Notes: generated from the sequence alone by a model not told the origin. A stretch of 64,000 nucleotides of DNA from an uncultured Thermoplasmatales archaeon (GCA_964481275.1 CAYZTD010000006.1:27643-91642); one strand, 5' to 3'; shown: positions 55,666 through 60,916, numbered from the stretch's first letter. Numbers and translations are program-made.

Positions 55666-55746
55666 ATGGATAAAATTGTTATAACAGGAGCAGTAACAAC
55701 TGCTTTAATTGCCGCAGCAACATATAGGATATCTTTAGGCATCTAG
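55666..55746 (+). CDS. 26-aa hydrophobic peptide, hypothetical
   Basis: MDKIVITGAVTTALIAAATYRISLGI. The SD GGGTGG lies about 9 nt upstream. Below the track cutoff, and the coding status is uncertain. Confidence 0.25.
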   Translation: MDKIVITGAVTTALIAAATYRISLGI

Positions 55747-55782
55747 TGTAATATTTTTAATCAAAAAATTATCTAGTGTTTT

Positions 55783-56766
55783 TTAAAACAATTCTGGCAA
55801 ACAACTTAACTTATACTGTTCATCAGTAACAAAAAATGATTGTTTTTTTATAGCACCAGAAAATTTTGAATTTATTTCATCAAGTATACTCATAAGTTCT
55901 TCGAGATTTTTTACAACAAATTCTGGTTCTAAATCAGCCCAACCAAGAGCTAGATTCATAAATTCTAAGTAAGGTTTGCTTTCAAGATGTTCAATTATTA
56001 GTTTTTTCATCTTATGATTTTTTAAATAAATATCAACTTTATAACTTTGAAGATTTAGCTTTGAGATATCAATATCTACACGGAATGCTTTTATTACTCC
56101 AGATTTGATAAGATTTTTTATTCTATAGTTTATTGTCTGCGAAGAACAATTAAATTTATCTGCAAGATCTATAAGAGAAGCACGAGCATTTTCCGCCAAC
56201 TCATTTAAAAGTTTGTAGTCAAGTTCATCGATTTCAACTGTGATTTGCCCGCATGTCTGCTTACAAATCTCCCTATCTTTTTTCAGTTCAACATTATCGA
56301 ATCCAGATAATAAATAAGATTTTTCATAAACGTTTGCCTGGATATATATTGATATTGAATATTTTTCGAAATATTCTTCATATTTATCAAGTGTTTTGTT
56401 CCAAAAATTATAAAACTCAAAAATATTATTTACCCATAAAACAACATCTAAATCGATCTCACTTTTTATTGTTGCTACAACCCAAGAATTTTTATAATCT
56501 ACAAAATATTTTATAATTTCATTTTTTATATCCTTTGTAATATACTGAAAATCAATATAAATTCTGAAAACATCATATCCAAGTTTAAAAGTATCAATAA
56601 CAGTCCAGTAATTCTTAATTAATCCTTCTTCTTCCATATTATTTATTCTATATGATACTACATCTCGGCCTAGACCTACTTTTTTACCTATCTGACTATT
56701 TGACTGCCTACAATCTAAATCCAACTCATATAAAATTTTTCTGTCTTTTAAATCGATTTTAGACAT
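55783..56766 (-). CDS. tandem (double) Lrp/AsnC-type transcriptional regulator
   Basis: Two HTH_AsnC-like units: LKDRKILYELDLDCRQSNSQIGKKVGLGRDVVSYRINNMEEEGLI and LDYKLLNELAENARASLIDLADKFNCSSQTINYRIKNLIKSGVI. Each is followed by a RAM-like region. The gene is divergent from the radical SAM gene. Confidence 0.75.
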   Translation of the reverse strand: MSKIDLKDRKILYELDLDCRQSNSQIGKKVGLGRDVVSYRINNMEEEGLIKNYWTVIDTFKLGYDVFRIYIDFQYITKDIKNEIIKYFVDYKNSWVVATIKSEIDLDVVLWVNNIFEFYNFWNKTLDKYEEYFEKYSISIYIQANVYEKSYLLSGFDNVELKKDREICKQTCGQITVEIDELDYKLLNELAENARASLIDLADKFNCSSQTINYRIKNLIKSGVIKAFRVDIDISKLNLQSYKVDIYLKNHKMKKLIIEHLESKPYLEFMNLALGWADLEPEFVVKNLEELMSILDEINSKFSGAIKKQSFFVTDEQYKLSCLPELF

Positions 56767-56856
56767 AATATTACAACTTTGTAACTTCTTATCTCTATTT
56801 TAGAATTTTGCATTTTAGTTAAATATATAAAGAAATAATTTATTGAAATAAATAGG

Positions 56857-59066: not shown

Positions 59067-59068
59067 AG

Positions 59069-59677
59069 ATGTATCCTATCTTTCTATTAACCTATACTAT
59101 ACTTGGAGGAGGTATAAAATATATTGATGATGCTTTTGACACAAATATATTCTCCAAAAAAACAGCATACATTCTTTCACCAATACTTGCAATAATAGGA
59201 GTATACTGCATGATTATAAACCCAGTAAGTGCTACAATTCTTCTTGCAATTTTAGCAGGAGTACTAATAAAAGGAAAAATTGACAACTGGGCTTTTATAT
59301 CAGCATTTATATTAGTAGTGTTACTTTCAGTATTACTTGGTATAGAATTTTTGATAATTCCTTTGATACTGCTTTCTGCAGCAGCAATACTAGACGAAGT
59401 AGGAAACGACTTCATTGATTCAGTTAAAAAAGATTTAGATGAAGATAAATTTTCAAATAAATTCACAATATACTTCTTTGGCCACAGATGGGTACTAAAA
59501 ATCGCAATATTATATCTTGTAATAGCTAATATAGTACCAATATATTTCTTCTTTGCAATGCTACTTTTTGATTACACATACGTAGCAGTAGGATTCATCG
59601 GCAAGTTAAAAAATGAAGATATAAAAATAACAAATACCCCGGGTATTATCTCAAAAATTGCATGTATCTTTAAATAA
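59069..59677 (+). CDS. polytopic membrane protein with two Asp-rich motifs
   Basis: About 6 TM segments. KYIDDAFD (DDxxD) lies near the N-terminus and LDEVGNDFIDS (NDxxD) after TM4, reminiscent of prenyl-diphosphate/Mg binding motifs. Family not recognised. Confidence 0.6.
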   Translation: MYPIFLLTYTILGGGIKYIDDAFDTNIFSKKTAYILSPILAIIGVYCMIINPVSATILLAILAGVLIKGKIDNWAFISAFILVVLLSVLLGIEFLIIPLILLSAAAILDEVGNDFIDSVKKDLDEDKFSNKFTIYFFGHRWVLKIAILYLVIANIVPIYFFFAMLLFDYTYVAVGFIGKLKNEDIKITNTPGIISKIACIFK

Positions 59678-59704
59678 ATCTAAACAATTTCTTTTTTTAT
59701 ATCT

Positions 59705-60916
59705 ATGACAATAAAATGTGATGTATTAGTTGTTGGCGGTGGCCCTGCAGGAAGTAGTGCTGCAAGAGCAGCAGCAAAAAAAGGTGCTAAAACGGTTCTT
59801 ATAGAAAAACAAAAAGAAATTAAAGACGTTCCCTGTGCTGAAGGCATAGGATCCTATCTTTTTCCATTATTACCATTTAAAATACCAAAAAATCAATTAA
59901 AATGGAAAATAAAAGGGATAGCATTTTCCGATGGGGAAACAGAAATAATTCAACAGGGGCATTTCTACAAAGCTTGGTCAATAGAACGAAGAGAATTTGA
60001 TGATTGGCTTCTTACTGAAGCAAAAAGAGCAGGAACTAAAATTTTTATGAACACAGAGTTTATTGATTTAAAATTATCAAAAAATTATCAAGTTGATACT
60101 ATCACTGCAAAACAAGAAAAGAAAAATATAAAAATAAAAGCAAAAAAAATTATTGCAGCAGACGGAGTGGAATCAGATATAGCAAAAAAATTAGATATAT
60201 TAAAGAAAAAATCAGACAGCATTGGATATGTCCACAGTTGGGAAATGAAAAATGTTGATATAAAATATCCATATCTTGAACAAATGTATTTAGGTGATTT
60301 TGCTCCAGGAGCATATGCTTATGTATTTCCAAAATCAAAGAATGTGGCCAACATAGGAGTAGGTAGTACAAAAGAAGATAAAAATTTAGAAAAAAATTTT
60401 AACAGATTCATTGAAGAAATTATCCCTAAACAAGTAAAAAATGCAGAAAAAACAATAGATAGATCAGGTATTGCTCCGATAAAAACAATTGTTGATGAAA
60501 TGCAATATGGAAATGTTTATTTCACAGGTGATGCAGCAAATCAAAATCTAAAACCTTATGTTGAAGGAATTTTACCTGCAATCATATGTGGAGATATAGC
60601 TGGAAAAACAGCTTCTTCTGAAAAACATAACTATGAACAATCAATAAAAAAGAAATTAGGAAAACAATTCAGAGAGTCAGATAAATTACTAGAAGAACTT
60701 TTAAAAATAAAAAATTATCCGAAAGACAAAAAGCATTTGATCAGCGTTTATATGTTTGCATTTATGGATATAAAAAATATTGGTAATCTAGCAACAAAGG
60801 ATGTAAGTCAAATAAAAAACGAATTATTTAGAAAAAGCTGCCAAGTTAATGGTTTCATTACTATGCTTAAATACTTTATTTGGTATGCTAAAATCCTCAC
60901 CACCCGTCGCGATTAA
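59705..60916 (+). CDS. geranylgeranyl reductase family FAD-dependent oxidoreductase
   Basis: CDVLVVGGGPAGSSAARAAAKKGAKTVLIEK dinucleotide fold, PCAEGIG, and GDAANQ. Length is typical at 403 aa. Confidence 0.87.
   Translation: MTIKCDVLVVGGGPAGSSAARAAAKKGAKTVLIEKQKEIKDVPCAEGIGSYLFPLLPFKIPKNQLKWKIKGIAFSDGETEIIQQGHFYKAWSIERREFDDWLLTEAKRAGTKIFMNTEFIDLKLSKNYQVDTITAKQEKKNIKIKAKKIIAADGVESDIAKKLDILKKKSDSIGYVHSWEMKNVDIKYPYLEQMYLGDFAPGAYAYVFPKSKNVANIGVGSTKEDKNLEKNFNRFIEEIIPKQVKNAEKTIDRSGIAPIKTIVDEMQYGNVYFTGDAANQNLKPYVEGILPAIICGDIAGKTASSEKHNYEQSIKKKLGKQFRESDKLLEELLKIKNYPKDKKHLISVYMFAFMDIKNIGNLATKDVSQIKNELFRKSCQVNGFITMLKYFIWYAKILTTRRD

Follow-up and report, generated by a model that had tools for sequence, protein, structure and literature searches.

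Does a class-B (cobalamin) radical S-adenosylmethionine (SAM) gene in an uncultured Thermoplasmatales archaeon, flanked by an Lrp-type regulator, small open reading frames (ORFs) and isoprenoid-type genes, belong to a functional system, and if so, does its product act on a peptide or on isoprenoid lipids? The question is raised by an island at positions 55666-60916, described here with its borders, of a 64,000-nt stretch of DNA (GCA_964481275.1, CAYZTD010000006.1:27643-91642); "the window" below means this whole stretch. A preliminary description made from the sequence listed a 26-aa hydrophobic ORF, a double Lrp/AsnC regulator, the radical SAM gene (rSAM), a spacer with an inverted repeat, a 55-aa four-Cys ORF, a 202-aa membrane protein and a geranylgeranyl reductase (GGR), and proposed RiPP-like maturation (RiPP: a peptide made on ribosomes and modified after its translation) or isoprenoid-lipid tailoring. 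An ORF map of 52-64 kb and inspection of the sequence placed every one of these elements where it had been described.

The best explanation found here is that the window carries one copy of a regulon with two promoters that is conserved among Thermoplasmatota of sediments, with a core of the 26-aa ORF (orf26), the tandem-Lrp gene (Lrp2) and rSAM, and a swappable cassette that in the window includes the 202-aa membrane protein (mem202). Direct observations behind this are the family membership and fold of the enzyme, the conservation of the locus, a coding signature in orf26, co-occurrence in both directions and DNA boxes shared between the promoters. The main features are as follows (SD, Shine-Dalgarno sequence; HTH, helix-turn-helix).

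55632-55646 (+): palindrome TGTCA-ATATA-TGACA between a TATA-like box and the orf26 SD; candidate operator or 5' hairpin
55666-55746 (+): orf26, a 26-aa Val/Ile/Ala/Thr/Gly-rich micro-protein, MDKIVITGAVTTALIAAATYRISLGI; unannotated, recognized by profile and coding signature
55783-56766 (-): Lrp2, tandem Lrp/AsnC-type protein of 327 aa with two HTH modules (Pfam HTH_24 1.8e-26, HTH_AsnC-type 4.4e-22)
56767-56856 (no strand): divergent control region of 90 nt, with motifs that recur across loci
56771-56784 (no strand): control-region motif TTACAACTTTGTAA
56796-56813 (no strand): control-region motif TATTTTAGAATTTTGCAT
56819-56830 (no strand): TATA-like TTAAATATATAA, upstream of the rSAM SD GGATGAGG
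56857-58758 (+): rSAM, class-B (cobalamin) radical SAM enzyme, TIGR03975 PoyC-type, by hidden Markov model (HMM), fold and homologues
58798-58869 (no strand): cassette operator-promoter, a conserved non-coding module of about 75 nt
58798-58806 (no strand): box 1, TTCCTACAA, one arm of the inverted repeat
about 58826-58848 (no strand): box 2, TTTTAGAATTTTGTAGGAATTT, including the region of the second arm
58858-58869 (no strand): box 3, GGGCTTTATGTT, BRE/TATA-like
58899-59066 (+): 55-aa micro-ORF with four Cys, its motif at 58956-58997 and its stop 2 nt before the mem202 start
59069-59677 (+): mem202, polytopic membrane protein of 202 aa with IDDAFD and GNDFID motifs
59705-60916 (+): GGR-family flavoprotein (TIGR02032 186.3 bits against a cut-off of 158.8; GGR_cat 41.4 against 27)

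Conservation of the Island and Exchange of the Cassette

About 60 related loci, against which the window copy is compared, were analyzed for synteny by tblastn and ORF clustering and carry labels (L001, L005 and so on) where they need to be told apart. A scan of one genome per species gave about 53 archaeal rSAM loci, with 42-70% identity in the enzyme. Because the arrangement recurs in dozens of related loci, the island is not a chance neighborhood. Lrp2 adjoins rSAM in nearly all of the archaeal ones, either divergent and upstream or convergent and immediately downstream. On the 3' side of this pair lies a cassette of 1-5 kb, the first gene of which always comes from one of three families. 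In about 17 loci, including the window, it is mem202, as a single copy or as two in tandem, with one or two GGR paralogues behind it as a rule (type 1). In about 13 it encodes a protein of some 420 aa, here called c6_419, after which comes a Rossmann protein resembling acyl-ACP reductases and, in many cases, a GGR as well (type 2), and in three it encodes a terpene-synthase-like (TS-like) protein of 320-400 aa with invariant DD and N-x3-T-x3-E (type 3). The combination of mem202 and GGR is found in about 45% of the loci with enough sequence.

A tree of the rSAM proteins has these cassette types interleaved, with mutual close relatives in the window (mem202), in L005 and L006 (c6_419) and in L001 (TS-like). 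In close relatives, at 69-73% rSAM identity, the cassette differs while rSAM, Lrp2, the promoter and the small ORF persist, and the breakpoint of the exchange lies precisely at the promoter. The interleaving therefore indicates that cassettes are swapped while the core stays. The core also occurs without a cassette in L029, L037 and L039, the first of these having the whole orf26, Lrp2 and rSAM trio.

The association was approached from the other side as well, with four mem202 homologues on long contigs chosen by mem202 similarity alone. All four (4/4) lie at most 4.5 kb 3' of an rSAM gene with one or more adjoining Lrp-type genes. As for the co-occurrence of five families suggested earlier, the linkage of the Lrp-type gene with rSAM held up, but the five do not form one fixed unit, the mem202/GGR type being one among at least three cassettes that replace each other in close relatives.

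One clade has an AttH/CrtC-like hydratase gene directly 3' of rSAM and Tes (433.7 bits) nearby. Both are found by rSAM in L022 and L024-L026, and the hydratase also in L031, L033 and L040.

Control Regions and the Tandem-Lrp Regulator

The 140-nt spacer following rSAM (58759-58898) does contain an inverted repeat, perfect over 9 nt per arm, with TTCCTACAA at 58798-58806 and TTGTAGGAA at 58837-58845 set 30 nt apart; the window has one such pattern, where chance alone predicts 0.02. It lies within the conserved module listed above, in which box 1 is followed by about 30 A-rich bases, box 2 (TTTTGGAATTTTGTAGGATTTTCT) and box 3 (GGGGCTTTATGTT), the last resembling an archaeal BRE/TATA. Some 35-40 nt 3' of box 3 there is a GGGG/GAGG Shine-Dalgarno sequence and then an ATG. 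An alignment of 36 copies from 35 sources has 15 invariant and 24 near-invariant columns. By manual tally the module is upstream of the cassette in about 32 of 37 loci having at least 2.5 kb of downstream sequence, and it is present in all four (4/4) of the independently chosen mem202 loci. When Lrp2 is 3' of rSAM, the module is found between Lrp2 and the cassette.

An RNA element was considered for this region and rejected: Rfam gave no match on 55400-61000 at E <= 1, and the repeat arms vary without consistent compensation. Since there is neither an Rfam match nor consistent covariation of the arms, and the repeat is positioned upstream of the presumed TATA, it is read as part of a DNA operator-promoter. 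The inverted repeat is present as described, and a reading of it as an RNA hairpin is not supported. L087 has two copies of the operator-promoter (5443-5512 and 7815-7884), the extra one preceding glycosyltransferase-2 genes and an exosortase/EpsH-like gene; the same control element therefore seems able to drive envelope genes beyond the three cassette types. A scan for sigma-70 promoters and terminators gave the same counts as in shuffled sequences and is not meaningful for an archaeon.

The second control region is the 90-nt gap between the divergent Lrp2 and rSAM genes, whose motifs keep an identical order in related loci. Also conserved across loci are a palindrome, TACAA-N2-TTGTA, by the Lrp2 start and a TATTTTAGAATTTTGCA box related to the cassette-promoter box, and a TTTTAGAATTTTG box is common to the intergenic region and the cassette promoter. 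This sharing suggests that rSAM and the cassette are under common control by a single factor, for which the tandem-Lrp protein is the simplest candidate.

The description of Lrp2 as a double regulator is supported by HTH_24 and HTH_AsnC-type, each of which matches two stretches of the protein. No HMM match to the RAM ligand-binding domain (AsnC_trans_reg) was obtained on Lrp2, and equivalog scores are far under their cut-offs. Lrp2 is presumed to regulate the rSAM and cassette promoters. The intergenic half-sites recall Lrp-type boxes such as that of Ss-LrpB (TTGCAAAATTTGCAA; PMC1802622), though this is only a resemblance. Features in common with archaeal Lrp/AsnC regulators of the Ss-LrpB type, which have arrays of semi-palindromic boxes, are the AsnC-type HTH and AT-rich boxes whose TTG(C/T)A half-sites lie close to the gene of the regulator itself and to the promoter of a target. 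Unlike these, Lrp2 has two complete HTH modules per chain and no RAM-domain HMM match, and the boxes of the island, which are putative sites, are arranged as TACAA...N30...TTGTA.

The Radical SAM Enzyme

The enzyme had been likened to rSAM_ocin_1, and the likeness is confirmed by the corresponding NCBIfam model, TIGR03975 ("RiPP maturation radical SAM C-methyltransferase"), which it matches over positions 2-606 of 606 at 392.9 bits against a cut-off of 281.85; its relatives score 333-383 bits. The remaining B12-radical SAM models are all far under cut-off, among them the lipid model TIGR04072 (70.1 against 360) and HpnR (65.8 against 650). In Pfam, Radical_SAM is matched at 71.7 bits (1e-19), and B12-binding at 22.9 bits, under its cut-off of 32.1. 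An AlphaFold2 (AF2) model with a confidence score (pLDDT) of 78.6 found OxsB, MgmA, TokK, TsrM and CysS in Foldseek at E-values of 1e-13 to 1e-16, and sequence-level searches also support the class-B fold. The cluster motif, CWWNNCTFC, has a non-canonical Cx4Cx2C spacing, and its three Cys are invariant in 13 homologues. In PoyC, which methylates the C-beta of Ile and Val, the spacing is Cx7Cx2C (PMC11285071).

The rSAM ORF has 633 aa and includes SRGCWWNNCTFC, while the public gene call has 631 aa. Translation probably starts at the ATG at 56863 rather than at 56857, since the conserved SD GGATGAGG precedes the second ATG. A C-terminal winged-helix domain resembling a RiPP recognition element (RRE) had also been proposed, and the AF2 model agrees, with RRE/winged-HTH topology at residues ~523-610. 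The C-terminal ~90 residues are arranged beta-beta-beta-alpha-alpha-alpha-beta-beta at a pLDDT of 84-95. HMM searches gave no RRE or PqqD match, only the MCM_C winged HTH at E 0.0066.

There are more than 1000 rSAM homologues, and each of the best 120 has an identity of 51% or more. Those with a named source come from Thermoplasmatota, Thermoplasmatales or "Euryarchaeota" metagenome-assembled genomes (MAGs) such as SG8-52-2. The next-best group after the archaea consists of Desulfobulbales and related bacteria, at 25-31% identity, and its loci (L057, L059-L084) encode proteins that pass the TIGR03975 cut-off with scores of 360 bits. About 12 of these bacterial loci have a tight murI - lolA-like - rSAM - rpsA(S1) order; others have SMC or a different context. 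No small ORF was found near the TIGR03975 gene in any of them. Membership in TIGR03975 had been taken to favor a peptide by itself, an argument that the Desulfobulbales members do not sustain: for that clade the label "RiPP maturation" in the database is unproven at the least and probably wrong, and with bacterial members lacking a peptide context the family name is therefore weak evidence for a peptide substrate. As a guide to the archaeal substrate the bacterial contexts are uninformative, yet they weaken the argument from the name.

The Two Small ORFs

Profile searches place both small ORFs in conserved families. The hydrophobic orf26 has, as described, an SD-like sequence upstream (GGGTGG at 55651-55656, ten bases 5'). 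Its profile matches 21 of 47 loci, and about 10 further diverged copies could be recognized by eye. The position is fixed, just beyond the 3' end of Lrp2 or, if Lrp2 is elsewhere, directly 5' of rSAM, and in every case found orf26 is on the rSAM strand. Entropy at the three codon positions is 13.5/8.7/22.5, with variation concentrated at third positions, which is a coding signature. It has a TATA-like box of its own and a conserved SD, GG(A)TGGTG. The palindrome between these two is kept in many loci and takes the form TGATA-N5-TATCA in some, with matching changes in its two arms; it could serve as a second operator or as a 5' hairpin.

The N-terminal 17-20 residues of orf26 are conserved as M-[DE]-K-I-V-[IV]-x-G-A-V-A-G-A-[IV]-x-A-A, and the C-terminal tails are variable, often with short x-[N/C/M/F]-P repeats (ICPRICP, INPVINPGINP, YMPGYMP). 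With a conserved N-terminal half and a tail that varies and bears repeats, orf26 is organized like a precursor, and its composition matches the residue types methylated by PoyC-type enzymes. These features make orf26 a candidate substrate or membrane partner of the rSAM enzyme.

A motif, C-I-S-T-C-I-x-x-C-E-K-G-I-Y or with more latitude C-I-S-T-x-I-x-x-C-E-K-G-[FI]-Y, characterizes the 55-aa ORF; at least 23 loci carry it in a small ORF that comes right behind the promoter, and within the family C28 and K30 never vary. A profile search of 5.8e9 sequences found 44 small "hypothetical" proteins, with E-values down to 5e-14; all are stand-alone, with no fused form among the 44. Among the related loci, L001 carries the motif as an N-terminal fusion to the TS-like protein, and L009, L013, L018 and L032 carry it as one to c6_419. 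The ORF that begins at the first ATG after box 3 stops about 5 nt or less from the mem202 start in 12 mem202 loci, though it ranges from 18 to 71 aa and about half of these ORFs are without the Cys motif. That its end meets the mem202 start whatever its length argues for translation of the small ORF and its coupling to mem202.

Codon-position entropy is flat over the Cys motif (8.4/8.0/8.4). Cys is encoded by TGC 45 times and by TGT eight times, whereas TGT accounts for 79% in the genome, and TCC, ACC and AGG are used as well; the window copy reads TGC ATA TCC ACC TGC ATA TCT AGG TGC GAA AAA GGT ATT TAT (58956-58997). RNAalifold gave -2.5 kcal/mol and no covariation for this region. Because the entropy is flat and the codons are rare, and RNA structure does not account for them, a second, nucleotide-level constraint is likely, for example an internal promoter or a protein-binding site. 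With its motif conserved at the nucleotide rather than the codon level, the 55-aa ORF is a less good precursor-like candidate than orf26. Similarity to boxes 2 and 3 of the promoter upstream is seen in the 3' part of the motif DNA (TCTAGGTGCGAAAAAGGTATTTATG), and the same motif is found in about 20 loci. In L006, and in that locus only, an extra 64-aa ORF with a hydrophobic segment (9031-9225) lies between the promoter and the Cys-motif ORF.

Proteins of the Cassette

The membrane protein mem202 has no Pfam or NCBIfam match, and none of its distant members has a Pfam match either. There are 179 close homologues, none with an informative name or Pfam domain, and a profile search extended the family to 419 representative clusters. 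Across 24 homologues D20, D24, N113 and D114 are invariant and D117 is kept in at least 90%; the invariant and near-invariant residues together are K17/D20/D24, K70/D72/N73, D109/E110/N113/D114/D117, R140/W141/K144 and D168/Y171. This acidic and basic set is compatible with Mg2+/diphosphate chemistry. The AF2 model has 8-9 helices and a pLDDT of 87.8, but a Foldseek search against the PDB found no match (best E=1, TM <0.3). Assignment of mem202 to UbiA, CarS or any solved fold was rejected, as HMM, PDB-profile and Foldseek searches were all without a match. Like UbiA-superfamily membrane prenyltransferases and cyclases, it is polytopic, with NDxxD and DxxxD motifs, conserved basic residues and a GGR neighbor. 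Unlike them, it has no sequence or structural similarity to UbiA or to PDB entries, has just ~200 aa, and has the motifs in reversed order.

The GGR of the window is, by score, a paralogue and not the housekeeping lipid reductase: against the equivalogs for digeranylgeranylglycerophospholipid (DGGGPL) reductase it reaches 128.9 of 780, 107.1 of 580 and 52.6 of 700. Its best PDB match is 3OZ2, the DGGGPL reductase of T. acidophilum (6e-33), and in the alignment the catalytic Cys, that of (P/R)C(A/G)EG, is retained (PCAEG), as is Y-x-[WY]-V-F-P-K (YAYVFPK). As for the other cassette types, the TS-like protein matches Pfam Terpene_syn_C_2 at E 8e-4 and its PDB profile reaches terpene synthases at E 0.4, and c6_419, an aromatic-rich protein that might be an ABBA prenyltransferase, has no Pfam, NCBIfam or PDB match.

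Proposed Mechanism and Alternatives

Both halves of the proposal of RiPP-like maturation or isoprenoid tailoring have gained support, and neither has been decided. The mechanism preferred here, tentatively and at somewhat less than an even chance, is PoyC-like C-methylation of orf26 together with a co-regulated isoprenoid-tailoring cassette, in which we infer the substrate, the pairing of regulator and DNA, and all of the chemistry. The tandem-Lrp protein would bind the TACAA/TTGTA and TTTTAGAATTTTG boxes of both promoters, and rSAM and the cassette would in this way be switched together. The radical SAM enzyme would dock on the micro-protein by way of its RRE-like C-terminal domain and C-methylate unactivated side-chain carbons of the orf26 product, as PoyC does on Val and Ile, to give a bulkier membrane peptide. 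From the cassette promoter would be expressed the 55-aa micro-ORF, translationally coupled to mem202, and then the GGR paralogue. The cassette enzymes would work on isoprenoid chains of the same membrane, mem202 by Mg2+/diphosphate-type chemistry at its acidic cluster and GGR by saturation of C=C bonds. In favor of this mechanism are the TIGR03975 match, the RRE-like domain, a selected Val/Ile-rich micro-ORF tied to rSAM, and a core that persists through changes of cassette.

A number of points weigh against it. The C-terminus is RRE-like as judged by topology alone; orf26 is undetected in about a third of the loci and, being merely 26 aa, could be a small membrane subunit. The island has no NHLP/Nif11-type leader, for which orf26 is too short (the 55-aa ORF has no Pfam or NCBIfam match), and no protease or exporter is tied to it. 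Every cassette enzyme that could be identified is of isoprenoid type, the closest TIGR03975 members in bacteria belong to lolA-rSAM-rpsA operons without a peptide gene, and rSAM followed by an AttH-like hydratase, with Tes, in one clade mirrors the Ted-Hgs lipid pair. The comparison with the proteusin C-methyltransferases PoyB/PoyC is similarly divided. The full-length TIGR03975 match, class-B architecture and non-canonical spacing of the cluster Cys are alike, and the island has an adjacent small gene rich in Val/Ile/Ala/Thr/Gly, residue types that PoyC methylates. Unlike PoyB/PoyC, however, the island is archaeal, lacks an NHLP/Nif11 leader, epimerase, protease or exporter, offers a candidate peptide of only 26 aa, and has a dedicated tandem-Lrp regulator and co-regulated isoprenoid-type enzymes.

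In the alternative that takes up the lipid side of these points, the enzyme would methylate or desaturate either the isoprenoid chains in membrane lipids or a precursor of prenyl-diphosphate type, the cassette enzymes and GGR paralogues would process the product, and the micro-proteins would be membrane adaptors or small regulatory ORFs. Tailoring of archaeal lipids by B12-radical SAM enzymes is known, and Ted is paired with the AttH hydratase Hgs (10.1101/2025.10.20.683597), to which Tes and the AttH/CrtC-like hydratase beside rSAM may be compared. The presence in some 20 or more loci of one GGR paralogue or two, the TS-like protein with its invariant DD and N-x3-T-x3-E in the same slot, the dependence of mem202 on the rSAM neighborhood (4/4) and the bacterial family members without peptide context all point the same way. 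The Tes/AttH adjacency, however, is confined to one clade of the rSAM tree and so may be a single event, and the enzyme matches a peptide-methylase model end to end, C-terminal domain included, while TIGR04072 gives 70 bits against 360. It also stays 69-73% identical through exchange of the cassette and is found without one, and a lipid substrate leaves the conserved micro-ORF and the RRE-like domain unexplained; this alternative, the strongest of the rivals, is judged somewhat less probable than the preferred mechanism. The island is like the archaeal lipid enzymes (GrsA/B, Gmm, Cgm, Pgm, Ted/Hgs) in having a class-B radical SAM gene beside isoprenoid genes and, in one related clade, the rSAM-then-hydratase order of Ted-Hgs. 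It probably differs from them in sequence family, its enzyme being TIGR03975-like with an RRE-like C-terminus. Different again is the proposal that the Cys-motif ORF is a RiPP-like precursor or carrier, to be methylated by rSAM and modified by the next enzyme, for example by lipidation, with GGR reducing the lipid. It is the first ORF 3' of rSAM in the window and many relatives, belongs to a conserved family of at least 44 small proteins with C28 and K30 invariant, and stands directly 5' of, or is fused to, the first cassette enzyme of any type. Yet about half of the cassettes that retain rSAM lack the motif and have short unrelated small ORFs instead, L011 has it out of frame, its three codon positions are equally conserved with rare GC-rich codons, and it would be transcribed from the cassette promoter and not together with rSAM, all of which makes this an improbable reading.

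A combination of these ideas, in which mem202, the TS-like protein and c6_419 are analogous prenyl-diphosphate enzymes that lipidate the Cys-motif or the 26-aa peptide, GGR saturates the chain and rSAM C-methylates the peptide, is distinctly improbable. Very improbable is the absence of any functional unit, with rSAM/Lrp and mem202/GGR adjacent through gene order inherited within one archaeal order. The archaeal loci do all come from one phylum, Thermoplasmatota, and the FIST gene, a 134-aa protein and a 323-aa protein (up323), all described below, are likewise syntenic without an evident role. But the island persists where its 5' flanks vary between clades, a DNA box is common to both promoters, the operator-promoter moves with the cassette when Lrp2 switches side, mem202 leads back to rSAM in 4/4 cases, and cassettes are exchanged precisely at the promoter.

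Novelty and Significance

That the system had not been studied in this lineage was upheld by searches of the literature on TIGR03975, Thermoprofundales radical SAM enzymes and archaeal RiPP mining, in which the island is not described. As for the radical SAM enzyme, it adds a new member to a known family, to which automatic annotation already assigns it. The island, the two micro-protein families, the membrane protein with a new fold, the operator-promoter and the swapping of cassettes appear undescribed in the literature searched. The lineage appears to be benthic Thermoplasmatota; related MAGs include SG8-52 and SM1-50 genomes, which we take to be Marine Benthic Group D. Benthic Thermoplasmatota are abundant in marine sediments. 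To our knowledge they have no cultured member, and their lipids and secondary metabolites are essentially unknown.

As a compact, regulated and defined gene set the island is suited to heterologous expression, and is a testable lead rather than a solved system. It provides a clean test of whether, outside the RiPP clusters of bacteria, TIGR03975 enzymes have peptide substrates at all or are over-annotated in databases. With mem202 it brings in a family of ~200-aa membrane proteins for which the model is confident but matches no known fold, and its conserved operator-promoter opens a way into Lrp-type regulation in archaea. Should the substrate prove to be a lipid, rSAM would add a new family to the radical SAM enzymes that shape biomarkers of the glycerol dialkyl glycerol tetraether (GDGT) type. 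If a peptide is lipidated, the product would be an archaeal ribosomal, isoprenoid-lipidated, C-methylated membrane peptide, with both molecule class and enzyme fold undescribed.

Composition, Flanking Genes and Other Observations

The regulator and radical SAM genes had been called very AT-rich compared with the reductase. This is not supported: GC content is 25.0% in rSAM, 26.6% in Lrp2 and 30.1% in GGR, against 28.9% in the window. At third codon positions, computed on the window genes, it is 14.8%, 18.6% and 17.1%, respectively. A horizontal origin was rejected on the basis of these almost equal third-position values, and because the differences between genes are small there is no signal of foreign origin. 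A known anti-phage defense system was likewise rejected, as PADLOC gave generic HTH matches for the Lrp protein and none for the other nine proteins.

Two features follow the cassette.

60824-62095 (-): FIST-domain protein (FIST N 2.2e-20), convergent with GGR and overlapping it by 93 nt (60824-60916)
62117-62521 (-): 134-aa protein without a Pfam match, the neighbor after FIST

In most loci the FIST gene comes after the cassette, irrespective of its type, and forms a conserved right-hand border of the island; a functional link to the island is unproven. The 93-nt overlap with GGR is repeated in an independent locus (L085, 9754-9846). Copies of the 134-aa protein, presumably roadblock-like, are 65-82% identical and come after FIST in about 20 loci. 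Beyond it is a 257-aa ORF (62551-63324, minus strand), the counterpart of which in L088 has Pfam matches to RecA/KaiC-type ATPases. In some loci the 134-aa and 257-aa genes are conserved together with the border, and with FIST they might make up a signaling module. Some relatives, L001 (10689-12293, minus strand) and L047 (11724-13118, minus strand), have by FIST, where the cassette ends, another B12 radical SAM gene of a different kind, which is BchE/HpnJ/HpnR-like (209 bits on BchE) and absent from the window.

To the 5' side, positions 51880-53598 encode a secreted-looking 572-aa protein with papain-type Peptidase_C1 and NosD/beta-helix domains. In 13 related loci a member of this family lies no more than a few kb from rSAM, in some cases immediately next to it, and may reflect synteny or a linked protease. 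Between it and the island is up323 (54522-55493), a 323-aa protein of no family with a faint Sso10a-like HTH match, conserved 5' of the island in about eight related loci at 36-52% identity. Toxin-antitoxin-like genes, of AbiEii type or a nucleotidyltransferase/HEPN-like pair, are found in or beside the island in L001 (2970-3731), L015 (8992-9959), L029 and L052; their insertion in several relatives suggests that the region is a recombination hotspot.

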